NCBI GenBank assembly: GCA_021789435.1
Contig: JAJYJO010000002.1
Coordinates: forward strand, 3,713 to 67,712
From: Chloroflexota bacterium
GTDB taxonomy: Bacteria > Chloroflexota > Limnocylindria > Limnocylindrales > CSP1-4
DNA: 64,000 nucleotides
Direction of reading: 5' to 3'
Shown here: positions 8,775 through 28,158 of the stretch, one piece after another
Layout: each line of letters starts with the position of its first letter
Position numbering within the stretch: position 1 is the stretch's first letter
Translations under genes and position numbers: made by a program
The notes under the pieces: model-generated
The model's database searches: none
Told to the model about the DNA's origin: nothing
Seen by the model: only the letters and a program-made list of their open reading frames with translations

Positions 8775-10433
8775 GTGCGGAGACCCATCGCCCTCTATGC
8801 GTTCGCCCTGCTCGTCCGGCTGGGGTTGATTGCGGCCTTCCCTCATCCGGCCTATGTCGATTCCTACTACTACGTCAACGTGGCGCAGGCGCTCCAGGCC
8901 GGCCACGGCCTCAACATCGACTTCATCTGGGCCTTCGTGGATGTGGGCGGCCGGCTGCCGGCGAACCCCCACCTCCCGATCCCGAGCAACGCCCACTGGA
9001 TGCCGCTGGCGTCCCTGGTCCAGGTCCCCTTCCTGGCCCTCTTCGGCTCGGCCTCCTGGGCTCCCCAGGTCCCCTTCGCCCTCTTCGGGGCGCTCGCCGC
9101 GCCGCTCACCTGGGCGATCGCGCGCGAGGCCGGGGCGAGCCGGTCGGTCCAGCTCGGCGCCGGCCTGCTGGGCGCGGTTCCGGCCGGGGCCACCATCTTC
9201 ATGAGCCAGCCCGACAACTTCGGGCTGTACGAGGTGCTGGGCGCGGCGGCCCTCTGGCTGACGGCGCGCGGGCTCCGGGGGGACAGCCGCGGCTTCGCCC
9301 TGGCGGGCCTGCTGGTGGGGTTCGCCACGCTGGCCCGCAACGATGGCGTGCTGATCGGGCTGGTGGTGGCCCTTGCCTTCTTCTGGGACCGCTGGCGGGC
9401 CTGGCGTTCCGGCGGCGGCCGGCGACCGGCCATCCCGTTCTGGTCCGCGGTCGCCTGCGCGGCGCTCTTCGCCGTGGTGATGGTCCCCTGGTATGCGCGC
9501 GAGCTGGCCGTCTTCGGCAGCATCTCGCCCTCGTCCTCGTCCGGCCGGATCCTCTTCATCCGGGATTTCGCCGAGATGAACAGCATCACCACGCCCACCA
9601 CCCTGGCCTACTTCCTGGGCCAGGGGATCGGGCCACTGGTCACGAGCCGCGTCCTGGGCCTGGTGGCGGCGGCCGCCAACTTCGCCGTCATCATCTGCTC
9701 GCTGGTGCTGGCCCCGTTCCTGGTGGTGGGGGCCTGGCGAAGGCGCCGATCCGGTGATTTCGGGCCGTTCCTGGTCTACTTCGCCGTCCTCTTCGCCTTC
9801 TCCGCCCTGGTCTCCGCGGTCCACGTACCGTACGGGACCTTCCTCCACTCTGCGGTGGCGCTCGCTCCGCACACCTACGTCCTGGCGCTTGAGGGCGTGG
9901 TCGCCGCCGTCGGCTGGGTGGCCCGTCGCCGTCGGTCCTGGCACGAGGAGCAGGCGGTGCCGGTCTTCCTGTGGGGCACGGTGGGCCTGACGATGCTGAC
10001 CGCGGCGGCCTTCACCGTGAGCGTGGTCAACGGCTGGACGGTGGAGCGGAACTACCAGCTGGCGGTCGCCGCGAAACTGGACCGCCTGGGGGTGCCGGCT
10101 TCCGACCGGCTGATGACGATCGACGCGGGCGGCTACCGCTACACGACCGGGCACGGCGGGGTGGTGACGGTCAACGACCCACTGCCGACGATCGAGCAGG
10201 TGGCGAAGGCCTACGACATCCGCTGGCTGGTCCTGGAGCGGGGCCACATCGTCCCGCCGCTGGTCCCGGTCCTGGGCGGCCAGGTCCACCAGTCCTGGAT
10301 CGGGCCGCCGGTGCTGACGATCCCCTCCTCCGTGGCGGCCGGCACGTATCCGGAGCTGGCGCTGTACCCGGTCTGCGTGGCGCCGGGCGACGCGCGCTGT
10401 GCCGCGTCGACAGCGGCCGGGGCCACGCCATGA
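8775..10433 (+). CDS. GT-C membrane glycosyltransferase, PMT_2/ArnT-like (GT39/GT83-like)
   Basis: 552 aa; N-terminal TM then loop 'HPAYVDSYYYVNVAQAL' (acidic/aromatic loop-1 motif), ~11 TM helices and a C-terminal periplasmic domain. It is a paralog of the next gene. Confidence 0.65.
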   Translation: MRRPIALYAFALLVRLGLIAAFPHPAYVDSYYYVNVAQALQAGHGLNIDFIWAFVDVGGRLPANPHLPIPSNAHWMPLASLVQVPFLALFGSASWAPQVPFALFGALAAPLTWAIAREAGASRSVQLGAGLLGAVPAGATIFMSQPDNFGLYEVLGAAALWLTARGLRGDSRGFALAGLLVGFATLARNDGVLIGLVVALAFFWDRWRAWRSGGGRRPAIPFWSAVACAALFAVVMVPWYARELAVFGSISPSSSSGRILFIRDFAEMNSITTPTTLAYFLGQGIGPLVTSRVLGLVAAAANFAVIICSLVLAPFLVVGAWRRRRSGDFGPFLVYFAVLFAFSALVSAVHVPYGTFLHSAVALAPHTYVLALEGVVAAVGWVARRRRSWHEEQAVPVFLWGTVGLTMLTAAAFTVSVVNGWTVERNYQLAVAAKLDRLGVPASDRLMTIDAGGYRYTTGHGGVVTVNDPLPTIEQVAKAYDIRWLVLERGHIVPPLVPVLGGQVHQSWIGPPVLTIPSSVAAGTYPELALYPVCVAPGDARCAASTAAGATP

Positions 10434-12121
10434 GCGCCCCGCGCACGCCCGCGCCGGACGCCTTCGTCCTGTCGCCCCGCGAGGCCTGGCTGAGTGCCGG
10501 CCTCGTCTTCCTGGTGGCGCTGGCCGTCCGGGCCGTCTCCGCGGCCGGGGTGCCGTTCCCGGTCCCGGAGGACACCGCCTACTACGTGGAGGTGGCCCGC
10601 AACCTGGTCCAGGGCCGCGGCCTGGTGAGCGACGCGCTCTGGAGCTACCAGACACCGGCCCTGGACCCGGCGACGGGGACCTTCGGGCTCTTCTTCCCGC
10701 GGCCGGCCTTCGAGGTCTGGCTGCCGCTGCCGAGCCTGCTGATGGCCGTCCCGATGCTGCTCTTCGGGCCGACCTTCCACGCCGCACAGGTCATGTCGGT
10801 CCCGGTCGGGGCGCTCGTGCCCGTGCTGGCCTGGCGCCTGGGCGCCGACGTGGCGGCGGAGCTGGGCCTGCCGGCGGGGCGGGCGCGGACGATGGCCCTG
10901 GGCGCCGGCCTCTGCGCCGCGGTGTTCGGGCCGCTCGTCCTGCACAACCTGCTGCCGGACTCCACGATGGTCTTCGCGGTCCTCGCTCTCTGGGCCTGCC
11001 TGCTGATGGAGCGGCTTGTCCGGGACGCAAGCGGGGGACGGCGGATCGCGTCGCTGGACCGCCGGCTGCTGGGACTGGGCGTCCTGCTGGGGCTGGCCGC
11101 CGTGACCCGCAGCGAGGCGGCCTGGGTCGCCCTGACCTGGGCGCTGCTGGCCTGGCTGGCCGTACCGGGAGCGCGCCGGGAGCGGCTCCGCCTGGTCGCG
11201 GTCCCGGCGGTCGTGGCGCTGGCGGTCTTCGCTCCCTGGGGGATCCGCGACTGGCGGATCTTCGGCTCGCCGCTGCCCGGTCAGACCGCGGCCAATGCCT
11301 TCTCCGTGACCGGCTTCGACATCTTCGCCTACCAGGTCCTGCCCACCCTCCAGCGCTACCTGGCGCAGGGTCCGGCGGCGCTGCTCCGGATGCGCGTGGA
11401 GGGCTTCGACCACAACCTCTTCTCCGTCCTCCTGATCCCCGCCGTGCCGGTCGGGCCGCTCGGCCTGCTGGCCCTGCCCTGGACCGGCCGGCTGCGGTCG
11501 CTCCGGCCACTGCTGATCGTGAGCCTCCTCACCTTCACCATCACGACCCTGGTCTTCCCGGTCGCCACGACCTGGGGCACCTTCCTCCACGCGGCCGGGC
11601 CGGTGCACGTCCTTCTGCTGGTCAGCTGCCTGGTGGCGCTCGACGCGGTGATCGCCCGGGTCGGGCGCTGGCGCGGCTGGACGCGGCCGGTCGCCTGGCT
11701 GGGCCCGGCCCTGGTGGCAGGGGTCGCCGCGCCCTTCCTGCTTCTGACGGTGACCGGGATCGGCAGCCTGGCAGCGGACACGCAGGCTCGCTACGCGGCC
11801 CTGCCGGGCCGCCTGGCGGCCGCCGGCATCCCGCTCTCGGCCGACGCGCCGGTCGTGACGGACTTCCCGATCTGGCTCTCCTACGCGGACGGCGTCCCGA
11901 CCCTGGCCCTGCCCGACGAGTCGCCGGCCAGCGTGCTGTCGCTCGCCCAGCGGTTCGGGGCCCGGCTGCTCGTGGTGCAGAGCAGCGGCCACGGCGCGTG
12001 GCCCCAGGTCATCGAAGGCCCGAACGCCCCGCCCGGGGCGGCCTGCTTCCAGGCGGTCCCGCTGCCGCCGGCCGGGGCCGCCCTGGCCGAGACGCGTGCG
12101 TACCTCATCGTCTGCCGCTGA
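10430..12121 (+). CDS. GT-C membrane glycosyltransferase, PMT_2/ArnT-like, tandem paralog of 8775..10433
   Basis: ATG 10430 overlaps the upstream stop (ATGA). Loop-1 motif 'PVPEDTAYYVEVARNL', many TM helices. It is in frame with the tail of the listed ORF 9971..12121. Confidence 0.6.
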   Translation: MSAPRTPAPDAFVLSPREAWLSAGLVFLVALAVRAVSAAGVPFPVPEDTAYYVEVARNLVQGRGLVSDALWSYQTPALDPATGTFGLFFPRPAFEVWLPLPSLLMAVPMLLFGPTFHAAQVMSVPVGALVPVLAWRLGADVAAELGLPAGRARTMALGAGLCAAVFGPLVLHNLLPDSTMVFAVLALWACLLMERLVRDASGGRRIASLDRRLLGLGVLLGLAAVTRSEAAWVALTWALLAWLAVPGARRERLRLVAVPAVVALAVFAPWGIRDWRIFGSPLPGQTAANAFSVTGFDIFAYQVLPTLQRYLAQGPAALLRMRVEGFDHNLFSVLLIPAVPVGPLGLLALPWTGRLRSLRPLLIVSLLTFTITTLVFPVATTWGTFLHAAGPVHVLLLVSCLVALDAVIARVGRWRGWTRPVAWLGPALVAGVAAPFLLLTVTGIGSLAADTQARYAALPGRLAAAGIPLSADAPVVTDFPIWLSYADGVPTLALPDESPASVLSLAQRFGARLLVVQSSGHGAWPQVIEGPNAPPGAACFQAVPLPPAGAALAETRAYLIVCR

Positions 12122-12146
12122 TAGCCGCCCGTATACTCGATCGACG

Positions 12147-13271
12147 ATGGACGCCGGACGGACGGGGACGGACGCGCGCGAGGGCCGCTTCGACGAGCTC
12201 TATGCCGAGGCGAAGGCGACCCTGGGCTATGGCGCCAACACGCTCCGCTCGATCAGCGAGCGCTACCGCGAGGTTTACCGCGACGCGCTCGCCCGCTGGC
12301 ACGCCCTGCGCGACGAGCTGGAGGCGGTGGATCGCGCGACGCCCGGCGCCGCCCCTCCGACAGACGCGGGTGACGCGGCCGCTGTGGACGGCCTGCCCGG
12401 ACCTGCCGGGGCGCTGGCGGCCGAGGCCGGCGCCGAGGATGCCCGCCGGCGGGCGCTGCGGTCGGACGTGGAGCGGATGACCGGCGACCTGGGCCGCCAC
12501 CAGGGCGAGCTCTCCAAGCTGGAGCTGACCGTCCGGAGCATGGAGAGCGGCTGGCTCTTCCTGGAGCGCGGCGACGTCAGCCTGCTCACCGAGCGCGACG
12601 TGCCCTGGTTGCCGACGGACATCCAGATGCGGATCGTGGAGGCCCAGGAGGCCGAGCGGTCGCGCCTGGCCCAGGAGGTCCACGACGGGCCCGCCCAGGC
12701 GCTCTCCAACGCGATCTTCCAGGTGGAATACATCGAGCGGGTGCTGGACCAGAACACCCGGCTGGCGCGGACCGAGCTGCGCTTCCTCCGGGAGCTGCTG
12801 CGCCGCGAGCTGGGCGACGTCCGGACCTTCATCAGCCAGCTCCGGCCCCCGCTCCTCGACGAGCTGGGCCTGGACGGGACGATCCTGGACGCCGTGGAGA
12901 ACATGGCCGCCCTCGCCGGCATCACCATCGAGACGGAGCTGGCCGCGCCGGGCGACCGGCTCTCCGACGTGGAGCAGGCGGGCGTTCTCCGGATCGCCCA
13001 GGAAGCGCTCCAGAATGTGCGCAAGCACGCCGGGGCCCGGCGGGCCGTGGTGGCCACCCGCCTCGAGGGGACCGACTGGGTCCTGGAGGTGCGGGACGAC
13101 GGCCGGGGCTTCGACATCGGCCAGGTGGCCACCCGCGGCCGCCGCAACTTCGGCCTCCAGTTCATGCGGGAGCGGGCCGACCTGATCGGCGCCCGCTTCG
13201 AGGTTCGTTCTCGCCCCGCCGGGGGCGCCATCGTCTGGCTCGCCATCCCGATCGGAGAGGAGGGTTCATGA
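12147..13271 (+). CDS. Cytoplasmic sensor histidine kinase, HisKA_3/DegS-like
   Basis: No TM; coiled-coil N-terminus. H-box 'LAQEVHDGPAQALSNAIFQVEYI', N-box 'QEALQNVRKHA', G1 'VRDDGRGFD', G2 'GLQFMRERA'. TATACT -10-like hexamer at 12132-12137 lies 9 nt before the ATG (leaderless). Confidence 0.75.
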   Translation: MDAGRTGTDAREGRFDELYAEAKATLGYGANTLRSISERYREVYRDALARWHALRDELEAVDRATPGAAPPTDAGDAAAVDGLPGPAGALAAEAGAEDARRRALRSDVERMTGDLGRHQGELSKLELTVRSMESGWLFLERGDVSLLTERDVPWLPTDIQMRIVEAQEAERSRLAQEVHDGPAQALSNAIFQVEYIERVLDQNTRLARTELRFLRELLRRELGDVRTFISQLRPPLLDELGLDGTILDAVENMAALAGITIETELAAPGDRLSDVEQAGVLRIAQEALQNVRKHAGARRAVVATRLEGTDWVLEVRDDGRGFDIGQVATRGRRNFGLQFMRERADLIGARFEVRSRPAGGAIVWLAIPIGEEGS

Positions 13272-14011
13272 GCGCAATGGAGTACCAGGGCCCGGAGCGG
13301 CGGCGCGGCGGCCCGGACCGTCGCGGCGGGGAGAAGACCCGCATCCTGCTGGTGGACGACCACGCCCTCTTCCGGGTGGGCATGCGCAACATCCTCGAGC
13401 GCGAGCCCGACTTCGTGATCGTGGGCGAGGCGGACGACACCCGCAGCGCCTTCGACGGTGCCGTGGAGAACGCCCCGGACATCATCCTGATGGACCTCTC
13501 GCTCCCGCCTCCCGGCGGCATCGAGACGACCCAGCGCATCAAGCGCGAGCTGCCCGCGGCGGGGATCATCGTCCTGGCCGTCAGCGAGGACGAGGACCTG
13601 CTCTTCGACGCGATCAAGGCCGGCGCGGCCGCCTTCATCCTCAAGGACATCGGCCCCGACGACCTGGTGACGATCATCCGCCGGGTCGCGACCGGCGAGT
13701 TCCTGATCAACGACAAGGTTTTCTCGCGGCCGGCCGTCGCCAGCCGGGTCCTCAAGGAGTTCCGCGAGCTGGCCATCTACGGCCAGGAGGCCGCCCCGAT
13801 CTTCGCCCCTCTCTCGCCGCGGGAGGTCGAGATCCTGGACAACATCGCCCAGGGGATGACCAACAAGCAGGTTGCCTATGCCCTCTCGATCAGCGAGCAG
13901 ACGGTCAAGAACCACATGAGCTCGATCCTCCGCAAGCTGAGCGTCAACGACCGGACCCAGGCGGTCGTCTACGCCATGCGCCAGGGCTGGATCCGGATGC
14001 CCGAGGACTGA
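13268..14011 (+). CDS. Response regulator, NarL/LuxR family (DegU-like)
   Basis: ATGA overlap with the kinase. Receiver 'RILLVDDHALFRVGMR ... IILMDLSLP' plus C-terminal LuxR HTH 'LSPREVEILDNIAQGMTNKQVAYALSISEQTVKNHMSSILRKL'. Confidence 0.8.
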   Translation: MSAMEYQGPERRRGGPDRRGGEKTRILLVDDHALFRVGMRNILEREPDFVIVGEADDTRSAFDGAVENAPDIILMDLSLPPPGGIETTQRIKRELPAAGIIVLAVSEDEDLLFDAIKAGAAAFILKDIGPDDLVTIIRRVATGEFLINDKVFSRPAVASRVLKEFRELAIYGQEAAPIFAPLSPREVEILDNIAQGMTNKQVAYALSISEQTVKNHMSSILRKLSVNDRTQAVVYAMRQGWIRMPED

Positions 14012-14017
14012 GGCAGG

Positions 14018-15244
14018 GTGAGCGACCCGCAGCCGGCCTCCCCGGCCTCCCCGGCCGGCCTGGCCGACCTGGCAGCCGGCACGCGCCGGCAGGTCGACCT
14101 GCTCGGGGTGGAGCTGGCGGAGATCGACCTGCTGGTCGCCCAGGCCAGGTCCGAGGCCGGCCGGCACGAGCAGAGGCGCGTCCAGGCGGCCGAGAAGAGC
14201 AAGGCGGCGACCGACCGCGGCGCCGACGCGGCCGAGCTCGCGGAGCTGGGCCGCCAGCTCGTGGCCGCCACCCGGCGGGCGGCCGTCATGGAAGCCCAGG
14301 TGGACGTGCTGGAGGGCAAGCAGAAGGTCCTGGGACGCTTCCGCGACAGCCTGGCCGGCGAGGCGGTGGTGCTGGAGCGGCTGGCCGGCGGTGGCGGGGC
14401 ATCCGGCGGCGCCGCGGCGGGCGCGCTCGGGCCGGCTTCGGCCACGGAGGGCGAGCCGGGCGTGCTGCCGGCCGGGGTCTCCCGGCTGCTGCTGAGCGCC
14501 CAGGAGGACCTCCGCCGGGACATCGCCCGGGCGATGCACGACGGCCCGGCCCAGAGCCTGACCAACATCGTCCTCCAGGCCCAGATCGTGGATCGCCTCC
14601 TGGGCCGCGACGCGGCCGCGGCGGCGGCCGAGCTGCGCCAGCTGGTGGCGATGGTCCAGGCGACGCTGGAGGCCACAAAGTCCTTCATCTTCGACGTCCG
14701 GCCGATGGTCCTCGACGACCTGGGGCTGGTGCCGACGATCCGGCGGGCGGCCCTGGAGCGATCCCGCCGCGCCCGCATCCCGGTCGCGTTCGAGTCGGTG
14801 GGACTGGACCGCCGCCTGCCGATGGACGTGGAATCGGGCCTCTTCCGGATCCTGGACGAGGCGACCGAGGCCTATCTCGGCCTCGAGCCGGACCGGGTGC
14901 TGATCGACCTCGACTGGTCGGAGCGGCTGGCCGCCCGGGTCCGCGCGGTGCGCGACGCGGCGCCACAGGCGGAGGAACCGGCCGCGGCCGGCGGGGCGTC
15001 GGGCCGGCGCCGCCTGCGCTGGGGACGCGGCCGCGACAAGGAGCCGGAGGTGCCGGCTGCTCTCGCCGCCATGATCGAGGAGCGCCGGAGCGCGGAGGAG
15101 GCCGCCCGGACACCGGCCCCGATCGGCCTGCCCGCGCCCGCCTGGCGAGCCATCCAGCAGCGGGCCGCGGTGATCTCGGTGAGCGTGGAGCTCGCCGATG
15201 AGGGGCGCGACCTGCGCGTCGGCTTCGAGCCCGGCCGGGCCTGA
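14018..15244 (+). CDS. DegS-like histidine-kinase paralog with degenerate catalytic (CA) domain, a putative pseudokinase or phosphatase
   Basis: Coiled-coil N-terminus and intact DHp H-box 'IARAMHDGPAQSLTNIVLQAQIV'. The N-box is replaced by 'LDEATEAYLGL' (no Asn/Lys/His), there is no DxGxG, and there is an Ala-rich insert. Confidence 0.55.
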   Translation: MSDPQPASPASPAGLADLAAGTRRQVDLLGVELAEIDLLVAQARSEAGRHEQRRVQAAEKSKAATDRGADAAELAELGRQLVAATRRAAVMEAQVDVLEGKQKVLGRFRDSLAGEAVVLERLAGGGGASGGAAAGALGPASATEGEPGVLPAGVSRLLLSAQEDLRRDIARAMHDGPAQSLTNIVLQAQIVDRLLGRDAAAAAAELRQLVAMVQATLEATKSFIFDVRPMVLDDLGLVPTIRRAALERSRRARIPVAFESVGLDRRLPMDVESGLFRILDEATEAYLGLEPDRVLIDLDWSERLAARVRAVRDAAPQAEEPAAAGGASGRRRLRWGRGRDKEPEVPAALAAMIEERRSAEEAARTPAPIGLPAPAWRAIQQRAAVISVSVELADEGRDLRVGFEPGRA

Positions 15245-15246
15245 CC

Positions 15247-15459
15247 GTGGGGACGGCGCTCCTTCGCGACGGCCGGGAGGCCCCGGCCCGCCTGCTGGCG
15301 GCCGCGCGCCGGCTCTCCCGGGAAGAGGCCCAGGGCCTGGTGGAGTACGGCCTGATCCTGGCCCTGATGGCCCTGGTGGCGGTCGTGGCCCTCACCTTCT
15401 TCGGCGGCGAGCTCTCGACCCTGCTCAGCGTGGTCGGCGGAGCGGCCAGCGCCGGTTGA
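15247..15459 (+). CDS. flp: Flp/Fap family type IVb prepilin (flp1); start uncertain
   Basis: C-terminal '...EEAQG|LVEYGLILALMALVAVVALTFFGG' matches the Flp processing and hydrophobic-core motif. GTG start immediately after the upstream stop. Confidence 0.6.
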   Translation: MGTALLRDGREAPARLLAAARRLSREEAQGLVEYGLILALMALVAVVALTFFGGELSTLLSVVGGAASAG

Positions 15460-15566
15460 GGGTGGTGCGTCCGCTCCTAGGACGAATTGCCTAATGGATT
15501 CTGCGGTCCGTGCCGCCTACAGTCCTGATGCCCCGCTCTGGGGTCCGCTCTCATCGGGAGGCTTGT

Positions 15567-15746
15567 ATGGCGCTCGTCAATCGGCTCTACGCGTTCCTCG
15601 CCACCTTCGGTCACGACGAGGAAGGCCAGGGTCTCGCCGAGTACGCGCTGATCCTCGCCCTCATCGCGATCCTGGCGATCATCGCCCTGCTCTTCCTGGG
15701 CGGCCAGGTCAAGACGATCCTGAGCAACGTCGGCAACTCGATCTAG
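15567..15746 (+). CDS. flp: Flp family prepilin (flp2)
   Basis: ATG 15567 with GGGAGG RBS. 'MALVNRLYAFLATFGHDEEGQG|LAEYALILALIAILAIIALLFLGGQVKTILSNVGNSI'. The last 132 nt (15615..15746) are 131/132 identical to flp4. Confidence 0.75.
   Translation: MALVNRLYAFLATFGHDEEGQGLAEYALILALIAILAIIALLFLGGQVKTILSNVGNSI
15615..15746 (+). repeat. 132-bp direct repeat (copy 1; copy 2 at 16372..16503), 131/132 identical, covering the mature-pilin-coding part of flp2 and flp4
   Basis: Direct sequence comparison; single C/T synonymous difference. Confidence 0.8.
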
Positions 15747-15768
15747 CTCGCCGTCTGCGACCGACAAC

Positions 15769-15801
15769 GTGAAGGCCGCGCCCGGTGGGCGCGGCCTTCA
15801 C
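15769..15801 (+). terminator. Perfect 15-bp stem / 3-nt loop GC-rich hairpin after flp2 (intrinsic-terminator-like, no U-tract)
   Basis: gtgaaggccgcgccc-ggt-gggcgcggccttcac, 23 nt after the flp2 stop. Confidence 0.5.
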
Positions 15802-15966
15802 GCGTCGGGACGCCGTTGACGGCGCCTCGCCGTCGCCACGAGCGTTCCCAACTGCCCGGCTGCGGGAGGGCCGCCACCGGTTCATCGCCGTCATCCCGGG
15901 TGCCGCGCACCACTGCCCTCGCCGGGGGAGAGGCGGGGAGCCTCGAAGGAAAGGAGGTGGTGGAGC

Positions 15967-16140
15967 GTGTCCAGCGCAGTCGCACTCATCTCATCCATCA
16001 TCCGGCGCGACGACCGCGGCCAGGGCCTGGCCGAGTACGCACTCATCCTCGCCTTGATCGCGGTCGTGGCGATCGTCTCGCTCATGTTCCTGGGGCAGAA
16101 CGTCCAGACGCTGATCAGCACCGTGGGAAGCTCGGTCTGA
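15967..16140 (+). CDS. flp: Flp family prepilin (flp3), 57 aa, below the ORF-track length cut-off
   Basis: GTG start preceded by AAGGAGGTG SD (15951-15959). 'MSSAVALISSIIRRDDRGQG|LAEYALILALIAVVAIVSLMFLGQNVQTLISTVGSSV'; stop TGA 16138-16140. Its 5' leader is homologous to that of flp4. Confidence 0.7.
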   Translation: MSSAVALISSIIRRDDRGQGLAEYALILALIAVVAIVSLMFLGQNVQTLISTVGSSV

Positions 16141-16180
16141 GCGGGCGGAGCAGGAAAGCACCGATACCGGCCCTGACCCC

Positions 16181-16209
16181 TTGACAGCCCGCGGACACGC
16201 GCATAGGGT
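16181..16209 (+). promoter_or_regulatory. Sigma-70-like promoter TTGACA-N17-TAGGGT upstream of flp4
   Basis: TTGACA at 16181-16186, 17-nt spacer, TAGGGT at 16204-16209. Confidence 0.4.
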
Positions 16210-16329
16210 GGCGCGGCCAGTCGACCAGGGAGGCGGTGGGAGCCAGCATCGGGCTCGGAAGCCTGCCCGGCCGTGACGGCAACCCCCGCCCGGGGGCGGG
16301 GAGTCTCGAGGAAAGGAGGTGCCCACCCC

Positions 16330-16503
16330 ATGACCTATCTCATGGCTCTCATCTCGTCCTATCTTCATCGTGACGAGGAAGGCCAGGGTCTCGCCGAGTA
16401 CGCGCTGATCCTCGCCCTCATCGCGATTCTGGCGATCATCGCCCTGCTCTTCCTGGGCGGCCAGGTCAAGACGATCCTGAGCAACGTCGGCAACTCGATC
16501 TAG
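16330..16503 (+). CDS. flp: Flp family prepilin (flp4), near-identical duplicate of flp2
   Basis: ATG 16330 with GAAAGGAGGTG SD. Sequence from the DEEGQG|LAEYAL processing motif to the C-terminus is identical to flp2; the DNA differs at one synonymous site (ATC/ATT). Confidence 0.75.
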   Translation: MTYLMALISSYLHRDEEGQGLAEYALILALIAILAIIALLFLGGQVKTILSNVGNSI

Positions 16504-16526
16504 CGAGCGCCGTCGTTCTCGATCCA

Positions 16527-16552
16527 AGGGGCCGCGCCTTCGGCGCGGCCCC
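16527..16552 (+). terminator. GC-rich hairpin (11-bp stem, ttc loop) after flp4
   Basis: ggggccgcgcc-ttc-ggcgcggcccc, 24 nt after the flp4 stop; it separates the pilin array from cpaB. Confidence 0.5.
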
Positions 16553-16603
16553 TCCGTGTCCCGGGGGATCCCTCCTGTCAGCCGGGCGATTCGTCCCGCG
16601 CGT

Positions 16604-16649
16604 CCTAGGCCATTCGTATAGTCGCGGGCCCCGGGACCGGTGCTACAGT
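16604..16649 (+). promoter_or_regulatory. cpaB promoter-like element: CCTAGG-CCATTCGTA-N..-CCGGGACCGGTGCTACAGT (extended -10 TGcTACAGT at 16641-16649)
   Basis: Shares CCATTCGTA and CCGGGACC(C)GGTGCTAnAnT with the 8724-8765 element. A related CCTAGG-N36-TACAGT architecture sits upstream of flp2 (15476-15531). Confidence 0.45.
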
Positions 16650-16683
16650 GGTGCCACCTGTCACAAGGCTGGGGAGAGGGTGT

Positions 16684-17571
16684 GTGAAGCGATCTAACCG
16701 TCTGATCCTGCTCATCGGGGTCTTTCTGGCCGTCGTCGCCTTCGTCGGTATCGTCTTCATCATCGGTTCGGGGACCGGCGGCGGCGGTGGAGGCACACCG
16801 ACGCCTCCCACCACGGTCTCGGTTGTCACCGCGGCGCGCGACATCCCGCTGGGGAACCAGATCGTCAGCGCGGACCTGGCGACCACCACGATCAAGACCA
16901 CCGACGAACCGGCCGATGCCTTCACCGACAAGGCCCTGGTCCTGGGCCAGATCGTCCGGACCACCGTCACCCAGGGCCAGATCCTGACCCGAAGCCAGTT
17001 CCTGACGACCACCAACGCGAACAGCATCGTGCCGAGCCTCCAGAAGGGCTTCCGGGCGATCGCCGTCCAGGTGGACCAGGTGACCGGCGTGGGAACGGTG
17101 ATCCAGACCGGCGACCGGGTGGACGTGGTCCTGGGCATCCGCATCCAGACGCTGGTACCGGCACCCGGCCCGAGCGCGCTCCCGCAGCCCTACCCGGGCG
17201 GCCCCCAGCTCTCGGTAAAGACCGTCCTCCAGAACCTCCAGGTGGTGGGAACCCTCCTGCCGCCGGCCACGCAGAGCCAGCAGCAACAGCAGGCCCAGCC
17301 GTCGCCGAGTCCGAGCGGCGGGAACGCCACCACGGGGCCGACCGTGACCCTGAACGGCCAGCAGGAGATCGTGATCCTGGCGGTCACGCCCCAGCAGGCC
17401 GAGGTGATCCGCTACGCCCAGCTGGGCGCCGAGCCGATCACCCTGACCCTCCGCTCCACGGCGGACAAGGACAGCCCGCCTGACGCCACGACCGGCATCG
17501 TCCTCAAGACCCTCATCGACCAGTACGGCGTCATCCCGCCCTTCCCGATCATCTCCAGCGTCCCGAAGTGA
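16684..17571 (+). CDS. cpaB: Flp pilus assembly protein CpaB/RcpC (SAF domain)
   Basis: GTG 16684 with GGGGAGAGGG RBS. 'MKRSNRLILLIGVFLAVVAFVG' TM anchor, Gly/Thr/Pro linker, SAF-like 'VVTAARDIPLGNQIVSADL'. The upstream in-frame GTG at 16648 overlaps the -10-like hexamer. Confidence 0.75.
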   Translation: MKRSNRLILLIGVFLAVVAFVGIVFIIGSGTGGGGGGTPTPPTTVSVVTAARDIPLGNQIVSADLATTTIKTTDEPADAFTDKALVLGQIVRTTVTQGQILTRSQFLTTTNANSIVPSLQKGFRAIAVQVDQVTGVGTVIQTGDRVDVVLGIRIQTLVPAPGPSALPQPYPGGPQLSVKTVLQNLQVVGTLLPPATQSQQQQQAQPSPSPSGGNATTGPTVTLNGQQEIVILAVTPQQAEVIRYAQLGAEPITLTLRSTADKDSPPDATTGIVLKTLIDQYGVIPPFPIISSVPK

Positions 17572-17671
17572 ACCCGGGGGACGGCCGCGGCCGCCCCTTG
17601 ATCCAGCAGAAAGCGGCGGGCTCGGTCCCTGACCGGGCCCGTCCCCATCCGGAGCTCCGACCGCAACACCC

Positions 17672-18910
17672 ATGGCCGACCAGATCCGCGTCCTGATCGT
17701 CGACGACATCCCGGAGACCCGGGACCACCTCGCCAAGCTGCTCGGCTTCGAGAGCGACATCGAGGTGGCGGGTTCGGCTGCGTCCGGCGCGGAGGCCCTG
17801 GAGATGGCCGCGCGCCTGCTGCCCGACGTGGTGCTGATGGACATCAACATGCCGGACATGGACGGCATCGCGGCCACGGAGCTGCTGTCGGCCCAGGTGC
17901 CGACGGCAGCGATCGTGATGATGTCGGTCCAGGGCGAGGCGGACTACCTGCGGCGTTCCATGCTGGCCGGGGCGCGCGAATTCCTGGTCAAGCCCTTCAG
18001 CTCCGACGAGCTGACGGCCGCGATCCGCCAGGTCCACTCCCGCGAGCGGCAGAAGCTGGACCGCCTGGTGCCGGTCGCCCCGACGCCGGGGAACGGGACG
18101 CCGGCCGGCGAGCGCGGGCCCGGCGAGATCCTGGCGATCTTCAGCCCCAAGGGCGGCGTGGGCCGGACGACGATCGCGGCCAACCTGGCCATCGCCGTCG
18201 CCGAACGCGGCAAGCGGGTGGTGGTGGTGGACGCGTCCTTCCAGTTCGGCGACATCGGCGTCCTCTTCAACCTCAACCCGCGCAACAAGTCGATCGCGGA
18301 CCTGGTCCCGGAGCTCGAGGCCGGCGAGCCCGAGTCGCTGGACACCTTCGTCATCACCCACTCCTCCGGGGTCCGGGTGCTGCTTGCCCCGCCCTCGCCG
18401 GAGATGGCGGAGCTGATCACGACCACCGCTGTCAAGCGCGTCCTGGAGGCCCTCCGGGCCAGCCACGACCTGGTGGTCGTCGACTGCGCCGCCTCCTTCA
18501 ACGACACGACGCTGGCGATCCTGGACCTGGCAGACGTCATCCTTTCCGTGCTGACCCTGGAGATCACCTGCATCAAGAACACCCGCCTCTTCCTGGAGGT
18601 GGCGGACCAGCTCGGCTACGAGCCGTCCAAGGTCCGGCTGGTGCTCAACCGCGCCGACACCACGCTCGGCATCCGGGTCGCCGACGTGGAGCACTCGATC
18701 GGCCGGAAGGTCGACTACACGGTGGTCAGCGACGGGCGGAGCGTGGTCTACGCATTGAACCGGGGCGTACCCTTCGTCCTGAGCAATCGGGAGAGTCAGG
18801 TCACGCAGGACATCATCCGGCTGGCCACCGGGCTCGCAGGCGAGCGCGCGGCGGCCGGAGGTGCCCGCAAGGCTGTGGCTCCCCGCAAATCACTGTTCGC
18901 ATGGCGATGA
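17672..18910 (+). CDS. cpaE: CpaE/TadZ-like pilus assembly ATPase: N-terminal canonical receiver domain plus ParA/MinD-type P-loop ATPase
   Basis: Receiver 'IRVLIVDDIPETRD ... VVLMDINMPDMDG ... LVKPF' and ATPase 'IFSPKGGVGRTTIAANLAIAV'. Confidence 0.8.
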   Translation: MADQIRVLIVDDIPETRDHLAKLLGFESDIEVAGSAASGAEALEMAARLLPDVVLMDINMPDMDGIAATELLSAQVPTAAIVMMSVQGEADYLRRSMLAGAREFLVKPFSSDELTAAIRQVHSRERQKLDRLVPVAPTPGNGTPAGERGPGEILAIFSPKGGVGRTTIAANLAIAVAERGKRVVVVDASFQFGDIGVLFNLNPRNKSIADLVPELEAGEPESLDTFVITHSSGVRVLLAPPSPEMAELITTTAVKRVLEALRASHDLVVVDCAASFNDTTLAILDLADVILSVLTLEITCIKNTRLFLEVADQLGYEPSKVRLVLNRADTTLGIRVADVEHSIGRKVDYTVVSDGRSVVYALNRGVPFVLSNRESQVTQDIIRLATGLAGERAAAGGARKAVAPRKSLFAWR

Positions 18911-18933
18911 GACCTGTTCGCATGGCGATCAGA
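18893..18933 (+). repeat. Tandem ~21-bp direct duplication (ctgttcgcatggcgatGagac / ctgttcgcatggcgatCagac) spanning the cpaE stop codon
   Basis: Two adjacent copies; the first contains the cpaE TGA, and in the second the stop is altered to TCA. Confidence 0.5.
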
Positions 18934-19001
18934 CCGGATCTGCCCAACCATCCGGTCGTCGGTGGAGCGACCCCAATCGGGGGCGAGAAGGGGTATAGGC
19001 G

Positions 19002-20411
19002 ATGTCCCTCCTGAAGCGGATCGAGAGCGCCCGACCGGGCTCCGGGCCGGGCCTGCCCGCACCGGCGCCCGGGGCGCCGGCCCCCGGCGGGCCGGGCGCG
19101 CCCGGCGGACCGGTCAGTCCCTCCCAGCGGCTGCTGACGCAGGCTCCGGTCCGCGAGTCGTTCCGGGACGTCAAGTTCCGGATCCAGAGCCGGGTCATCC
19201 AGGACCTGGATCCCAAGCTGGACCTCTCCAACCAGGTCGAGGTGCGCCGCCAGATCGAGGAGATCTTCGGCAAGGTCATCGACGAGGAGGGCCTGGCCCT
19301 GACGCGCGCCGAGCGGGTCAGGATGCTGGAGCAGATCACCGACGAGATCATCGGCCTTGGCCCGCTGGAGCCGCTGCTCCGCGACGAGAGCATCACCGAG
19401 ATCATGGTCAACGGCCCCCGCCAGGTCTACATCGAGCGCTCGGGCAAGCTGGAGCTGACCAACGTCGTCTTCCAGAACGACGACCACGTCATGCGGATCA
19501 TCGACCGGATCATCGCCCCGATCGGACGCCGCGTGGACGAGTCGTCACCGATGGTGGACGCCCGCCTGACCGACGGCTCCCGCGTCAACGCCATCATCCC
19601 GCCGCTGTCGCTCGTCGGCCCGGTGGTCACCGTCCGGAAGTTCTCCGCCTCGCCGTTCACCGTGGACGACCTGATCCGCTTCGGGACCGCGACGCCGGAG
19701 ATGTTCGACTTCCTGCGGGCCTGCGTGGAGGCGCGGCTCAACATCTTCGTCTCCGGCGGCACCGGCTCGGGCAAGACCACGACCCTCAACGTCCTCTCCT
19801 CGTTCATCCCCAACGACGAGCGGATCATCACGATCGAGGACGCGGCCGAGCTCCAGCTCCGCCAGGAGCACGTGGTGACGCTCGAGTCGCGGCCGCCGAA
19901 CATCGAGGGCCGCGGGGCGATCCCGATCCGGGAGCTCGTGCGCAACGCCCTCCGGATGCGCCCCGACCGGATCATCGTCGGCGAGTGCCGCGGCGGCGAG
20001 GCGCTGGACATGCTCCAGGCGATGAACACCGGCCACGACGGCTCGATGTCCACCGGCCACGCGAACAGTCCCCGCGACATGCTGGCGCGCCTGGAGACGA
20101 TGGTCCTGATGGCCGGCGTGGACCTGCCGCTGCGGGCGATCCGCGAGCAGGTCGCCTCCGCGGTGGACCTGATCGTCCACCAGTCCCGCCTCAAGGACGG
20201 CACCCGCAAGATCGTCAACATCACCGAGGTCCAGGGCATGGAGGGTGATGTGATCGTCATGCAGGACGTCTTCGTCTTCGAGCAGACGGGCATCGTGGAG
20301 GGCAAGATCCAGGGCCGCCTCAAGGCGACCGGGATCCGGCCGAAGTTCGTCGAGAAGTTCGAGGTCATGGGCATCCACCTGCCGCCTGGCCTCTTCGGCT
20401 TCGTCTACTAG
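19002..20411 (+). CDS. cpaF: Tad/Flp pilus secretion ATPase CpaF/TadA (type II/IV secretion NTPase)
   Basis: Walker A 'VSGGTGSGKTTTLNVL', 'ITIEDAAELQL', Asp/His boxes, 'ECRGGEALDMLQAMNTGHDG'. Confidence 0.85.
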   Translation: MSLLKRIESARPGSGPGLPAPAPGAPAPGGPGAPGGPVSPSQRLLTQAPVRESFRDVKFRIQSRVIQDLDPKLDLSNQVEVRRQIEEIFGKVIDEEGLALTRAERVRMLEQITDEIIGLGPLEPLLRDESITEIMVNGPRQVYIERSGKLELTNVVFQNDDHVMRIIDRIIAPIGRRVDESSPMVDARLTDGSRVNAIIPPLSLVGPVVTVRKFSASPFTVDDLIRFGTATPEMFDFLRACVEARLNIFVSGGTGSGKTTTLNVLSSFIPNDERIITIEDAAELQLRQEHVVTLESRPPNIEGRGAIPIRELVRNALRMRPDRIIVGECRGGEALDMLQAMNTGHDGSMSTGHANSPRDMLARLETMVLMAGVDLPLRAIREQVASAVDLIVHQSRLKDGTRKIVNITEVQGMEGDVIVMQDVFVFEQTGIVEGKIQGRLKATGIRPKFVEKFEVMGIHLPPGLFGFVY

Positions 20412-20429
20412 GCCGCCGAGGAGGAAGCC

Positions 20430-21443
20430 ATGAACCCCGTCACCGTCGCCGTCGCGGCCGTCGCGGCCCTGGCGATCGTCCTCATCGCGGCCGGCATCGC
20501 CTTCTCCGGCGGGTCGGGGATCAGCGCCCGCCTGGAGCGGTATGCGGCCGGCAGGCAGGACCAGCCCAAGCCGGCCTCCACGGGCCAGGGCCCCATCTCG
20601 GACCTGCTGGCCCAGAGCCAGGCGCTGGCGCAGCTCAACAAGGCCGTCGAGCAGCGCGACTTCGGGGCCAACCTGGCCCGGGAGCTGGCCCGGGCGGACC
20701 TCAAGCTGAAGGTCAGCGAGTACCTGGCCATCTGGGCCGGCTCCACCGTCGGGCTGCCGATCCTCTTCCTGATCCTGTCGATCGCCCTGCCGACGCTGGG
20801 CAACCCGCTGGTCCTGCTGGTGGGAGCCTTCCTGGGCTTCCTGCTGCCGCGCTTCTGGCTGGGCCGCCGCAAGAGCTCGCGGCTCAACGCCTTCAACAAG
20901 CAGCTCCCGGACACGATCACCCTGATCGCCAACGCCCTGCGAGCCGGCTCGTCGTTCCTCCAGGCGATCGAGCTGGTGGTCCGGGAATCGCGACCGCCGA
21001 TCTCGCTCGAGTTCGGCCGGGTCATCCGGGAGGTCAACCTGGGCCTGCCCTTCGAGCAGGCGCTGGAGAACATGGTCCGCCGGGTCCGCTCGGACGACCT
21101 GGAGTTGATGGCGACGGCCATCTCCATCCAGCACACGGTCGGCGGCAACCTGGCCGAGATCCTCGACTCGATCGCCTACACGATCCGGGAGCGGATCCGG
21201 ATCAAGGGCGAGATCCGGACGCTCACCGCCCAGCAGCGACTCTCCGGCTATGTCGTCGGCTTCCTGCCGATCGGCATCGCACTCTTCCTCTTCATCGCCG
21301 CGCCGACCTTCCTGGAGCCGATGTTCAAGAACCCGCCGGGGATCATCGGCCTGCCGGCCGGGGTCATCATCCTCGCCTTCGGCGGCTTCATGATGTTCAT
21401 CGGCTTCATGGCCATCCGGCGCATCGTCGACATCGAGGTCTAG
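20430..21443 (+). CDS. tadB: Tad pilus inner-membrane platform protein TadB (T2SS-F domain)
   Basis: N-terminal TM, cytoplasmic domain, then GspF-like repeat 'PDTITLIANALRAGSSFLQAIE'; follows cpaF. Confidence 0.75.
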   Translation: MNPVTVAVAAVAALAIVLIAAGIAFSGGSGISARLERYAAGRQDQPKPASTGQGPISDLLAQSQALAQLNKAVEQRDFGANLARELARADLKLKVSEYLAIWAGSTVGLPILFLILSIALPTLGNPLVLLVGAFLGFLLPRFWLGRRKSSRLNAFNKQLPDTITLIANALRAGSSFLQAIELVVRESRPPISLEFGRVIREVNLGLPFEQALENMVRRVRSDDLELMATAISIQHTVGGNLAEILDSIAYTIRERIRIKGEIRTLTAQQRLSGYVVGFLPIGIALFLFIAAPTFLEPMFKNPPGIIGLPAGVIILAFGGFMMFIGFMAIRRIVDIEV

Positions 21444-21445
21444 CC

Positions 21446-22381
21446 ATGCCGACGTTCATGCCCATCGTCATCGCCGCCATCGCGGCGGGCTCGATCCTGC
21501 TGATCTTCCTGGGCCTGGCCGGCAGCCGGCCGGTGGACCCGGTCCAGGCCCGGCTGACCCAGCTCGGCTCGATGCAGGCCAAGAACCTGGAGGAGCTGGA
21601 ACTCCAGCAGCCGTTCGTGGAGCGGACGCTGCGCCCGCTGGCCCTGCGTCTCTCCGGGTCCGTCTCCCGGCTCACGAGCCAGTCCTTCACCGAGACCACC
21701 GAGAAGCGGCTGGCCCTGGCCGGCAACCCCGGCGACCTGCGGGTCGCAGACTGGCTGGGGATCAAGGCCGTGGCGGCCATCGTCTTCGCCATCGTCTTCG
21801 TCGTGCTGGGTGTGCTGCTGCTCGGCTTCCCGCTGATGATCGGCCTGATCATGGGCGTGGTGGGCCTGCTCTTCGGCTACACGATTCCGGAGTTCTGGCT
21901 GGGCCGCCGCGTGCGGGCCCGCCAGAAGGCGATCCTGCTGCAGATCCCGGACGCGCTGGACCTGCTGACGATCTCCGTCCGGGCCGGCCTGGGCTTCGAC
22001 GCGGCGCTGGCCAAGGTCGTGGAGAAGATGAAGGGCCCGCTGGTGGACGAGTTCCGGCGGGCGCTGGCGGAGGTGCGGGTTGGCAAGGCGCGCCGCGACG
22101 CGCTGCGCGACATGATCCCGCGGACCGAGGTACCGGCCCTCACCAACTTCATCGGGGCAATCATCCAGGCCGAGCAGCTGGGCGTCTCGATCTCCAAGGT
22201 GCTGCAGGTCCAGTCGGAACAGCTGCGGATCGAGCGGCGCCAGCGGGCCGAGGAGATGGCGGCCAAGGCGCCGATCAAGATGCTCTTCCCCCTGGTGGGC
22301 TGCATCTTCCCGTCCCTCTTCATCATCATCCTGGGCCCGGCCATGATCCTGCTGGTCCTGAACCTGGGGGCGGCGCACTAG
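21446..22381 (+). CDS. tadC: Tad pilus inner-membrane platform protein TadC (T2SS-F domain)
   Basis: GspF-like 'PDALDLLTISVRAGLGFDAALAKV'; paralog of tadB immediately downstream. Confidence 0.75.
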   Translation: MPTFMPIVIAAIAAGSILLIFLGLAGSRPVDPVQARLTQLGSMQAKNLEELELQQPFVERTLRPLALRLSGSVSRLTSQSFTETTEKRLALAGNPGDLRVADWLGIKAVAAIVFAIVFVVLGVLLLGFPLMIGLIMGVVGLLFGYTIPEFWLGRRVRARQKAILLQIPDALDLLTISVRAGLGFDAALAKVVEKMKGPLVDEFRRALAEVRVGKARRDALRDMIPRTEVPALTNFIGAIIQAEQLGVSISKVLQVQSEQLRIERRQRAEEMAAKAPIKMLFPLVGCIFPSLFIIILGPAMILLVLNLGAAH

Positions 22382-22395
22382 GCCGCGTCCGGAGG

Positions 22396-22824
22396 GTGAT
22401 CGCTCGCAACCTGGAGCGCGGCACGCTCCTCGGCTCGTCGCTGGAGGCGGCCTCATCCTTCGGGGCCCGCTTCCGGGGCCTGATGGGCCGGCCTCCGCTC
22501 CCCGATGATGGCGGCCTGTGGCTGCCCGGGACGAACGGGATCCACATGATGTTCATGCGCTTCGCGCTCGACTGTGTCTTCCTGGACCGGCCGGATGCGG
22601 CGGGCCAGCGGCGGGTGGTGGGGCTGCGACGGGCGCTGCCGCCCTGGCGCGGCGTGGTCTGGTACGTCCGCGGCGCGGACGGCGTCCTGGAGCTGCCCGT
22701 GGGAGCGATCGACCGGTCCGGGACGGTGGTCGGGGACCGGGTCGTCGTGGGTGTCGCGGACCCGATCGTCGCGGACGACGGGGCCGACCGGGCCACCGAC
22801 GAGGCCACCGGCCCGCCGCCGTAG
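22396..22824 (+). CDS. DUF192 domain protein (COG1430), a frequent accessory of Tad loci
   Basis: 'FRGLMGRPPLPDDGGLWL...GIHMMFMRFALDCVFLD' matches the DUF192 R-G-L-M-G-R / M-x-F motifs. The GTG start has poor SD spacing, so the start is uncertain. Confidence 0.55.
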   Translation: MIARNLERGTLLGSSLEAASSFGARFRGLMGRPPLPDDGGLWLPGTNGIHMMFMRFALDCVFLDRPDAAGQRRVVGLRRALPPWRGVVWYVRGADGVLELPVGAIDRSGTVVGDRVVVGVADPIVADDGADRATDEATGPPP

Positions 22825-27277: not shown

Positions 27278-28158
27278 GAACCCTGGACGAGCTGACGCAG
27301 GCCGTGCGTCTCGGGAACAACCCGGGCCCGCCAGGTCTCCGGCGCGCCGGCGTCGTGCGGATCGCCTTGTCGATGGTGGGGGCGATCACCGTTGTCGGGG
27401 TCTACCTCATCGGCGGCGGACCCGGCTGGGACACCTACGCGTATTGGCGCGCCGCCACGAAACTCGATCCCTACGGGGTGAGTGTCGCGTTTGGATCGTT
27501 CAACTACAGCCCTCCGATCGTCGACCTCCTGCGCCCATTCGGAGCGCTCCCCTGGCCCCTGTTCTATGGTGGCTTGACCGCCCTGTCGCTCGCCGCGCTC
27601 GTGTGGATGTGTCGCACGTGGTCCCTGGCTGCCCTGGCCTTTCCTCCCGTGGCAATCGACCTCTACCAGGGCAACATCCACCTGATCCTGGCCGCGATGA
27701 TCGTCGCCGGATTCCGGTGGAGCGGCGTCTGGGCGGTGCCGATCCTGACCAAGGTTTCGCCCGGTGTCGGACTGCTCTGGTTCGCCGTGAGACGGGAATG
27801 GCGGCCACTCACGCTGTCGCTGGCGGTGACGGCAGCGATCGTCGCGGCGTCTCTACTGGTCCAGCCGGGGCTCTGGGCGTCCTGGCTCCACCACCTCGCT
27901 GTCACGACGCTTCCCGCGGACGCGGTAGCGGTACCGGTGCCATTCCTGCTCCGACTGCTGACCGCGGCCGGCCTCGTCGCCTGGGGAGCGGCGACGGCAC
28001 GGCGTTGGACCGTCCTCGTCGGCGCCATGTGGGCCACCGCGTTGCTCGGCATCGGCGGCTTCGCGATGCTGGCCGGGCTGGTACCGCTCTGGCGCGAGAA
28101 CCGGAGTCGGGCCGACCGGCGAGGCGGCGAGCCGGGACCCCGGCCGGCCGCGAGATAG
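27274..28158 (+). CDS. DUF2029 / GT87-type membrane glycosyltransferase
   Basis: TTG start overlapping the upstream stop; 'ILTKVSPGVGLLWFAV' K-x-P loop; multi-TM. Confidence 0.6.
   Translation: MRTLDELTQAVRLGNNPGPPGLRRAGVVRIALSMVGAITVVGVYLIGGGPGWDTYAYWRAATKLDPYGVSVAFGSFNYSPPIVDLLRPFGALPWPLFYGGLTALSLAALVWMCRTWSLAALAFPPVAIDLYQGNIHLILAAMIVAGFRWSGVWAVPILTKVSPGVGLLWFAVRREWRPLTLSLAVTAAIVAASLLVQPGLWASWLHHLAVTTLPADAVAVPVPFLLRLLTAAGLVAWGAATARRWTVLVGAMWATALLGIGGFAMLAGLVPLWRENRSRADRRGGEPGPRPAAR

Follow-up and report, generated by a model that had tools for sequence, protein, structure and literature searches.

The 64-kb stretch of DNA considered here (72.6% G+C; "the window" below denotes this whole stretch) carries four small open reading frames (ORFs) in tandem on the + strand at positions 15247-16503, placed between a two-component regulator set and the genes cpaB-tadZ-cpaF-tadB-tadC. 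These four ORFs probably encode Flp-family prepilins, and the locus is best read as the set of pilin genes belonging to a Tad (type IVc) pilus of the monoderm type. A first-pass annotation of the same DNA had described four flp genes in tandem, and this description holds: each ORF encodes a Flp-like N-terminus and matches the Pfam family PF04964. The members of the array are as follows.

15247..15459, + strand: flp1, a divergent Flp-like gene (GTG start, 70 amino acids, leader of about 28-30 amino acids, motif AQGLVEYGLIL)
15567..15746, + strand: flp2, the first major-pilin copy (ATG start, 59 amino acids, Shine-Dalgarno sequence GGGAGG)
15967..16140, + strand: flp3, a diverged major-class copy (GTG start, 57 amino acids)
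16330..16503, + strand: flp4, the second major-pilin copy (ATG start, 57 amino acids)

Matches to the Flp_Fap model (PF04964) were obtained with E-values of 1.5e-5 for flp1 (25.1 bits), 8.3e-7 for flp2, 6.1e-5 for flp3 and 4.1e-7 for flp4. Precomputed hits at the European Nucleotide Archive (ENA) assign this family to flp2, flp3 and flp4, and not to flp1. The G+C content at third codon positions (GC3) ranges from 0.84 to 0.93 across the four ORFs, as in real genes of the same genome, with flp1 at 0.93. Each product contains one hydrophobic segment, and the predicted mature lengths are 39-42 amino acids. The flp2 product aligns with the solved Caulobacter crescentus pilin PilA (8u1k), and a profile of the major class matches the solved Tad pilins 8u1k (E = 7e-6) and 8u2b (E = 6e-5) with Glu5 and Tyr6 in register. 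A repeat finder likewise joins the mature-coding parts of all four genes into one four-member family. Within it, flp3 is a diverged sister copy that differs from flp2 and flp4 at 13 of 40 compared positions. This gene had been reported as missing from the ORF track, which is true of lists cut at 60 amino acids but not of those made with a minimum of 30 (min_aa 30), where it appears; it is also a called gene in the public ENA assembly.

The first gene, flp1, is Flp-like but distant from the others; it evolves fast and is apparently coupled to the regulator genes that precede it. Profile–profile comparison (hhalign) of the flp1 class with the major class yields a probability of 98.6% and an E-value of 5.9e-16. 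A gene of this class occupies the equivalent position in four related loci, designated L001, L002, L003 and L006, and the class as a whole is characterized by rapid evolution and weak Pfam matches. The GTG codon of flp1 is located 2 nt past the TGA stop of a HisKA_3 gene, and a Shine-Dalgarno sequence is not evident; the position of that stop just ahead of the start codon suggests translational coupling.

Regarding leader processing, the first-pass annotation had placed the motif GQG|L(A/V)EY in all four genes. The GQG triplet is indeed found in flp2, flp3 and flp4, but flp1 reads EEAQG / LVEY, with AQG in its place. The proposed cut after GQG is doubtful; cleavage at G|QGLAEY is likelier, and Glu and Tyr then take positions +5 and +6, the places that they have in the Caulobacter Tad pilin of known structure. 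Because E25 and Y26 of flp2 align with E5 and Y6 of mature C. crescentus PilA (8u1k), the predicted site is DEEG|QGLAEY, which by analogy would likely release a mature pilin of 39 amino acids. Glu5 and Tyr6 are conserved positions of Tad pilins (PMC10710030). Both GQGLAEYALIL and the N-terminal half GQGLAEYALILALIA are invariant in the 17 major-class genes compared (17/17 for the latter). With a G|QG-type cut, flp1 would have Ala at position -1, in the window and in L002 alike; this residue is unusual there and adds to the doubts over the role of flp1.

The two major-pilin copies, flp2 and flp4, share a sharply delimited block, which was located with the repeat finder and by base-by-base comparison.

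15615..15747, + strand: homogenised block, copy A, spanning six codons at the end of the leader (DEEGQG), the complete mature-pilin sequence and the stop
16372..16504, + strand: homogenised block, copy B

The two copies are identical at 132 of 133 nt, the sole difference being a synonymous ATC/ATT. The block runs from the codons DEEGQG to 1 base beyond the stop, and the sequences flanking it are unrelated (23-33% identity). The claim that flp2 and flp4 encode identical mature pilins is thereby borne out; the earlier count of 131/132 describes the same block with its ends placed slightly differently. In its remaining parts flp4 is a mosaic: its 5' untranslated region (5'UTR), Shine-Dalgarno sequence and leader are like those of flp3, at a period of 363 nt, while its mature part is that of flp2. 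The flp4 5'UTR and leader also resemble those of the second copy of relatives. Collectively, flp2 and flp4 would be two separately expressed genes for one identical mature major pilin.

The same synteny was identified in five related loci, among which L001, L002, L003 and L006 have arrays of 4-5 flp genes and L005 has two flp genes. Together with L012, a more distant Anaerolineaceae locus, these four each contain 2-3 major copies with identical or near-identical mature parts and differing leaders, and the shared mature sequence varies from genome to genome. Over the mature part, copies from one genome have a nucleotide identity of 0.90-1.00 and copies from different genomes one of 0.79-0.94. 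At the protein level, copies within a genome differ at 0-1 amino acids, whereas the window copies differ from those of other genomes at 6-8, the mean over all between-genome pairs being 4.8. Synonymous differences at codons specifying the same residue number 25/277 within genomes and 421/2079 between them; as a yardstick, 0.24-0.28 of same-residue codons in cpaF differ between genomes. The limits of the block are nearly equal in six genomes (the window, L001, L002, L003, L006 and L012): its start lies approximately 9-24 nt ahead of the invariant Gly codon and its end, in most pairs, at or just past the stop, with flanks of 10-47% identity.

Neighbour-joining trees were constructed for two partitions of these genes, the 110 nt upstream of the block and the mature block itself. 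The upstream partition grouped sequences by position, with all flp2 genes together and flp4 of the window beside the third genes of L006 and L002 (L006 f3 and L002 f3), while the mature block grouped strictly by genome. Since leaders and upstream parts group by position and mature parts by genome, both genes predate the species, and their mature parts have been repeatedly overwritten. For the interpretation as a whole, including that of the locus as a Tad array, sequence comparison makes it probable that repeated gene conversion, limited to the mature-coding block, has maintained the pair in concerted evolution, as opposed to fresh duplication. The first-pass annotation had offered recent duplication or gene conversion for flp2 and flp4; the sharp block ends and the discordant partitions in relatives support that statement and narrow it to conversion. 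Mechanistically, homologous recombination between the copies would repeatedly homogenise about 130 nt, namely 5-8 codons at the end of the leader, those of the mature helix and the stop, and the tract would be confined to these because on both sides the copies are too dissimilar to recombine. All subunits of the filament would in this manner be kept identical, while differing promoters, ribosome-binding sites and leader peptides could provide a higher dosage and possibly separate regulation.

The content of the array varies among close genomes. In three of the relatives (L001 7210-7404, L002 7181-7357 and L003 7283-7459), the last gene belongs to a distinct pilin class (...GSQISDKLS...) that is not present in the window, and the window has flp3 between its two major copies, so that both order and content vary. 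More broadly, about 27 of the 81 loci scanned carry at least two Flp-like ORFs, and in 7 of the 81 two flp genes share at least 90% identity in the mature part and have diverged upstream of it. Two or three tandem flp genes with identical or near-identical products are found in Bacillota and Arthrobacter (L044 5324-5699, L057 6608-7372, L065 5520-5835 and L062 13761-14232); the leaders are also identical or nearly so in L044, L057 and L065, but differ in L062. The identical-leader arrays of Bacillota and Actinomycetota look like whole-gene duplications or conversions.

Several other explanations were considered, beginning with two that assign a purpose to the exchange. The short tract may be a maintained, clade-wide design in which one mature pilin is held in units differing in promoter, ribosome-binding site and leader, with flp3 in reserve, so that a single conversion could swap the displayed pilin everywhere, for example under phage or predator pressure; this proposal is speculative, and we give it a small chance. 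A related and similarly unlikely explanation is pilin switching, in which conversion among flp2, flp3 and flp4 would move alternative mature cassettes, for instance in escape from pilus-specific phages. Its loose model is Neisseria pilE/pilS, where conversion proceeds from silent, promoterless partial cassettes and diversifies the pilin. The presence of a diverged flp3 between two converted copies, with a 5' leader shared with flp4, is consistent with switching, as are a tract covering exactly the exposed mature part and mature sequences that are uniform within a genome and carry 6-8 differences between genomes. However, the likeness to pilE/pilS lies in conversion between pilin copies, and here conversion takes place between complete genes and homogenises them. 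Every copy involved has a start codon, a Shine-Dalgarno sequence and a leader, and silent or truncated cassettes are absent; all four flp genes have a start codon and leader peptide, in place of the silent, promoterless, 5'-truncated donors of pilE/pilS, and flp2, flp3 and flp4 each have a Shine-Dalgarno sequence and a promoter-like site. Furthermore, two assemblies of near-identical strains have the same array without variants, and no element that could initiate recombination was identified.

If one flp gene had recently been duplicated in tandem in this lineage, without gene conversion, the copies could be identical simply because they are young. This would account for the near-identity of the flp2/flp4 block, and plain recent duplication fits some other phyla, in which tandem flp copies share identical leaders as well (L057 and L044). 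In the window, however, the identity has sharp limits, which lie 15 nt upstream of the invariant Gly codon (that preceding LAEY) and 1 nt past the stop; in the leader, 5'UTR, promoter and 3' flank the copies are no more alike than random sequence, although a young duplication should include its flanks. Other genomes contain positional counterparts of the 5' part of flp2 and also of that of flp4, which places the origin of both genes before the species split, and duplication alone would require independent fresh events with the same boundaries in six genomes. Recent duplication is hence quite improbable. Still less credit is due to strong purifying selection combined with extreme codon bias (GC3 of about 0.9) and no recombination. 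The invariance of GQGLAEYALILALIA in 17 major-class genes and the GC3 range of the array are compatible with such constraint, but orthologues depart from the window sequence at 6-8 residues and in 12-33% of the codons for shared residues, whereas the flp2/flp4 pair of the window differs at 0 residues and 1/40 codons. Moreover, substitutions between genomes are common to both copies of each genome, a pattern that selection alone does not give.

The first-pass annotation had also raised the prospect that the pair might collapse into one copy in an independent assembly. Both copies are present there, with the same single synonymous difference. This assembly, ENA ERZ27233565 (MEGAHIT), includes the 6.2-kb contig k141_234102, on which the regulators lie together with the four flp genes; it shows scattered differences elsewhere and therefore represents a different assembly of a near-identical strain. 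That the second copy is an artefact of mis-joining or repeat expansion can be dismissed for practical purposes: although the MEGAHIT assembly breaks 25-80 nt 3' of flp4, the break falls at a strain-variable hairpin and does not involve the repeat, the four genes share a single contig that matches the window at every position over 15212-16516, the flanks of each copy are unique, exact runs within the 133-nt repeat do not exceed 76 nt and hence leave no graph ambiguity at the assembler's k = 141, and relatives, many of them on contigs of 0.4-1 Mb, have a matching architecture.

Upstream of the individual genes, candidate expression signals were identified at the following positions.

15518..15523, + strand: putative -10 hexamer of flp2, TACAGT, found by eye, with no good -35 hexamer
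15816..15845, + strand: degenerate promoter-like site of flp3, TTGACG-18-GAGCGT, weak and read by analogy with the conserved sites of relatives
16181..16209, + strand: sigma-70-like promoter of flp4, TTGACA-17-TAGGGT, a consensus match
15932..15959, + strand: 5' leader repeat of flp3, holding the extended Shine-Dalgarno sequence GAAAGGAGGTG at 15949-15959
16295..16321, + strand: 5' leader repeat of flp4, holding GAAAGGAGGTG at 16311-16321

The flp2 hexamer aligns with TATATT upstream of flp2 in L002 and L003, where the 5' region is positionally conserved. The pattern TTGACA-17-TAnnGT has two matches in the 64 kb, against 0.05 expected. Within the 21-kb locus of L001, L002, L003 and L006, all strict matches on the + strand precede a downstream flp copy, at 34-127 nt from its start codon, and AAAGGAGG is likewise confined in these four to the fronts of downstream copies. 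The conserved 5' leader that had been noted for flp3 and flp4 was recovered as the repeat 15932-15959 versus 16295-16321. Its 11-mer GAAAGGAGGTG occurs at only these two sites in the window, with 0 expected from shuffles. A structured RNA in the leaders was rejected: the flp3, flp4 and flp2 leaders fold no better than shuffles (z of +0.3, +1.0 and +1.1, respectively). At E<=1, an Rfam search over 14800-17000 returned only chance miRNA and sRNA matches on hairpins, and at gathering level Rfam had zero matches in the whole window. The sequence AAAGGAGGTG is the complement of the 3'-terminal stretch of 16S rRNA that is conserved in bacteria. Because leader structure is no better than chance and because of this complementarity, the conserved leader is best read as an unusually long Shine-Dalgarno sequence. 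The two major copies would accordingly differ in their signals: flp2 may rely on a -10-only promoter and a motif in common with the cpaB promoter, and flp4 on a consensus-like TTGACA -35 element and an 11-nt Shine-Dalgarno sequence.

The region upstream of cpaB at 16604-16665 (TCCTAGGCCATTCGTATAGTCGCG...GGTGCTACAGTGGTGCCACCTGTCACA) is almost invariant in L001, L002, L003 and L006. A 12-mer within it, TAGGCCATTCGT (16606-16617), has an inverted counterpart upstream of flp2, ACGAATTGCCTA (15482-15493), with an 11/12 match, and a similar inverted pair is present in L001. The 12-mers are perhaps a candidate shared operator, possibly for the adjacent LuxR-type regulator.

Two terminator-like structures follow the major copies.

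15768..15802, + strand: hairpin after flp2, with a 16-bp perfect GC-rich stem, a 3-nt loop and no T-tract (-48.4 kcal/mol, z -5.24)
16527..16553, + strand: hairpin after flp4, with a 12-bp perfect stem, a 3-nt loop and no T-tract (-39.4 kcal/mol, z -3.16)

Both fold far better than shuffles and have tails without a T-tract, in agreement with the strong GC hairpins lacking U-tracts that had been recorded after flp2 and flp4. No hairpin was found 3' of flp3, where the region folds like shuffles (z -0.39). In relatives, a hairpin follows every major copy and the last flp copy, often with a short T-rich tail, and in those of lower G+C content the tail is often of the TTTC type. In contig k141_234102, the flp4 hairpin carries a G-C to A-T change on both arms, which leaves a stem of 19 bp (-53.3 kcal/mol, z -6.2); this compensatory change keeps the stem and is therefore covariation favouring a functional structure. 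The segment 16517-16560, compared with L082 4188-4255, is a strain-level hotspot: the ENA contig has about 20 differences there and none in the preceding 1.3 kb. A role in termination or attenuation is likely for these hairpins, and as terminators or attenuators they would give short, abundant pilin transcripts insulated from the assembly operon.

Upstream and downstream of the array, the following genes were assigned from Pfam matches, with ENA gene calls and conserved synteny in addition for the assembly operon and synteny in relatives for the regulators.

12096..15244, + strand: upstream regulators
12096-13271, + strand: histidine kinase
13268-14011, + strand: LuxR-type response regulator
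14018-15244, + strand: HisKA_3 protein without an ATPase domain
16684..22381, + strand: downstream Tad assembly operon
16684-17571, + strand: cpaB/rcpC (Pfam RcpC)
17672-18910, + strand: REC-tadZ/cpaE (Pfam AAA_31/ParA with REC)
19002-20411, + strand: cpaF/tadA (Pfam T2SSE)
20430-21443, + strand: tadB (Pfam T2SSF)
21446-22381, + strand: tadC (Pfam T2SSF)
91-927, 2542-3609, 4501-5613, 8775-10433, 25721-27277 and 27274-28158: membrane glycosyltransferases of the GT87 and PMT_2 types

Within the regulator set, the protein of 14018-15244 (408 amino acids) has a HisKA_3 dimerisation/phosphoacceptor domain and no detectable HATPase_c domain, and is syntenic in relatives at 51-60% identity. The LuxR/GerE-type regulator of 13268-14011 is 87-88% identical across genomes where CpaB, which evolves faster than any other protein of the operon, is only 38-44% identical. 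In the distant locus L012, too, the flp array is preceded by a regulator and a kinase. LuxR-type and response-regulator-type control occurs in other Tad loci, for example through PprB in Pseudomonas aeruginosa.

In the assembly operon, the mechanical ORF of cpaB begins at GTG 16648, but its likely start is GTG 16684, after GGGGAGAGG, which gives 295 amino acids as in the ENA assembly. TadZ/CpaE (17672-18910) has a full-scoring REC domain (96 bits) ahead of its ParA/MinD-like ATPase domain. Directly after tadC lies a DUF192 (COG1430) gene, and not a pseudopilin gene, at 22396-22824, a position kept in L001, L002, L003 and L006. The six membrane glycosyltransferases (GT87 and PMT_2; GT-C) flank the tad locus on both sides. 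No secretin was found at the locus, no TadD or TadV nearby, and no tRNAs in the window. The closest relatives of CpaF are proteins of uncultured Chloroflexota metagenome-assembled genomes (MAGs) at 91-93% identity, followed at 80-89% by MAGs labelled Limnocylindria or Limnocylindrales. By these CpaF matches the locus belongs in the Chloroflexota, and the host is a high-GC soil organism apparently close to the Limnocylindria lineage.

A number of results weigh against this account of a converted, separately expressed pilin array. With Flp_Fap scores of 23.2-30.1 bits, all four genes fall below the gathering score of 32.2, and NCBIfam models gave zero matches for the four ORFs. In the 64 kb, neither TadE/TadF-like minor pilins nor a prepilin peptidase was found, the latter among the scanned membrane ORFs or by a GxGD motif search, and processing and assembly therefore rest on analogy. 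On the expression side, a scan for canonical sigma-70 promoters returned zero sites, its -10 rule being too strict for TAnnGT hexamers, and the flp promoters are consensus matches, that is, predicted signals. A terminator scan of 15000-16900, under a rule that needs a T-tract, also gave zero sites, and the hairpin tails read CGCGTCGGG and CCGTGTCCC, without the U-tract of a canonical intrinsic terminator. The rationale of dosage and regulation is one that we infer. As to conversion, the tree of the upstream part is built on short, poorly alignable sequence and lacks support values, and the second and third genes of L006 (f2/f3) are only 90% identical, which indicates that homogenisation is not uniform.

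Chloroflexota were already known to possess rcpC-tadZABC together with flp genes (PMC7332563). In monoderms, type IVc pilus (Tfpc) machinery is reduced, and the prepilin peptidase can be encoded elsewhere, as in Bifidobacterium breve (PMC6916266). The Tfpc systems of B. breve and Micrococcus luteus resemble that of the window in having a minimal pilin, two platform paralogues, an ATPase and TadZ, and that of M. luteus shows extensive gene duplication (PMC6916266). The window differs from both in retaining an RcpC/CpaB homologue, in lacking adjacent TadE/TadF and in carrying four tandem flp genes.

Loci with multiple flp genes occur in Aggregatibacter actinomycetemcomitans (flp-1/flp-2), Haemophilus ducreyi (flp1-3), Agrobacterium tumefaciens/A. 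fabrum, Sinorhizobium meliloti and Bradyrhizobium, and, as in the window, tiny Glu5-Tyr6 prepilins are encoded there immediately ahead of rcpC/cpaB-tadZ-tadA-tadB-tadC. Tad loci commonly contain several pilin paralogues, and these can substitute for one another (PMC10934763, PMC12918737). Those of S. meliloti are closer to their orthologues than to one another (PMC10934763), unlike those of the window. Compared with these loci, the window encodes an identical mature pilin from two copies with unrelated leaders and promoters, apparently kept so by conversion across the clade, and has a monoderm-style minimal set without a secretin, nearby TadD, TadE/F or TadV. Kram et al. reportedly described, in 2008, a "termination cascade" in the tad locus of A. 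actinomycetemcomitans, where stem-loops after the pilin gene lead to abundant short flp transcripts and less read-through to the assembly genes. The hairpins predicted in the window differ in lacking U-tracts, and the downstream copies have apparent promoters of their own.

Concerted evolution of prokaryotic duplicates is familiar from tufA/tufB and from tandem flagellin or archaellin genes. As in the window, paralogues within a genome are closer to each other there than to orthologues, and the converted tracts are bounded by loss of homology. The tract of the window differs in being very short (about 130 nt) and in coinciding with the part of the protein left after leader removal. A search of one literature collection found no paper linking flp genes with gene conversion, and nothing specific to flp on concerted evolution or flp duplication.

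As a Tad pilin array the locus is ordinary, though from an under-studied phylum, and it offers a neat example, found across the clade, of conversion restricted to the mature-pilin segment; the understanding of how Tad pili work is unchanged by it. For short-read assemblies it carries a caution, as one of them broke at the strain-variable hairpin 3' of flp4. Very little work exists on the Tad pili of soil Chloroflexota, Limnocylindria-like lineages included, and annotation often misses small flp genes. The locus maps how such an array is built, with a promoter-like site and a strong Shine-Dalgarno sequence for each downstream copy and a hairpin at the end of flp2 and flp4. The conversion tract matches the part of the protein that enters the filament, a correspondence that helps the annotation of flp arrays and the choice of peptides for pilus preparations.

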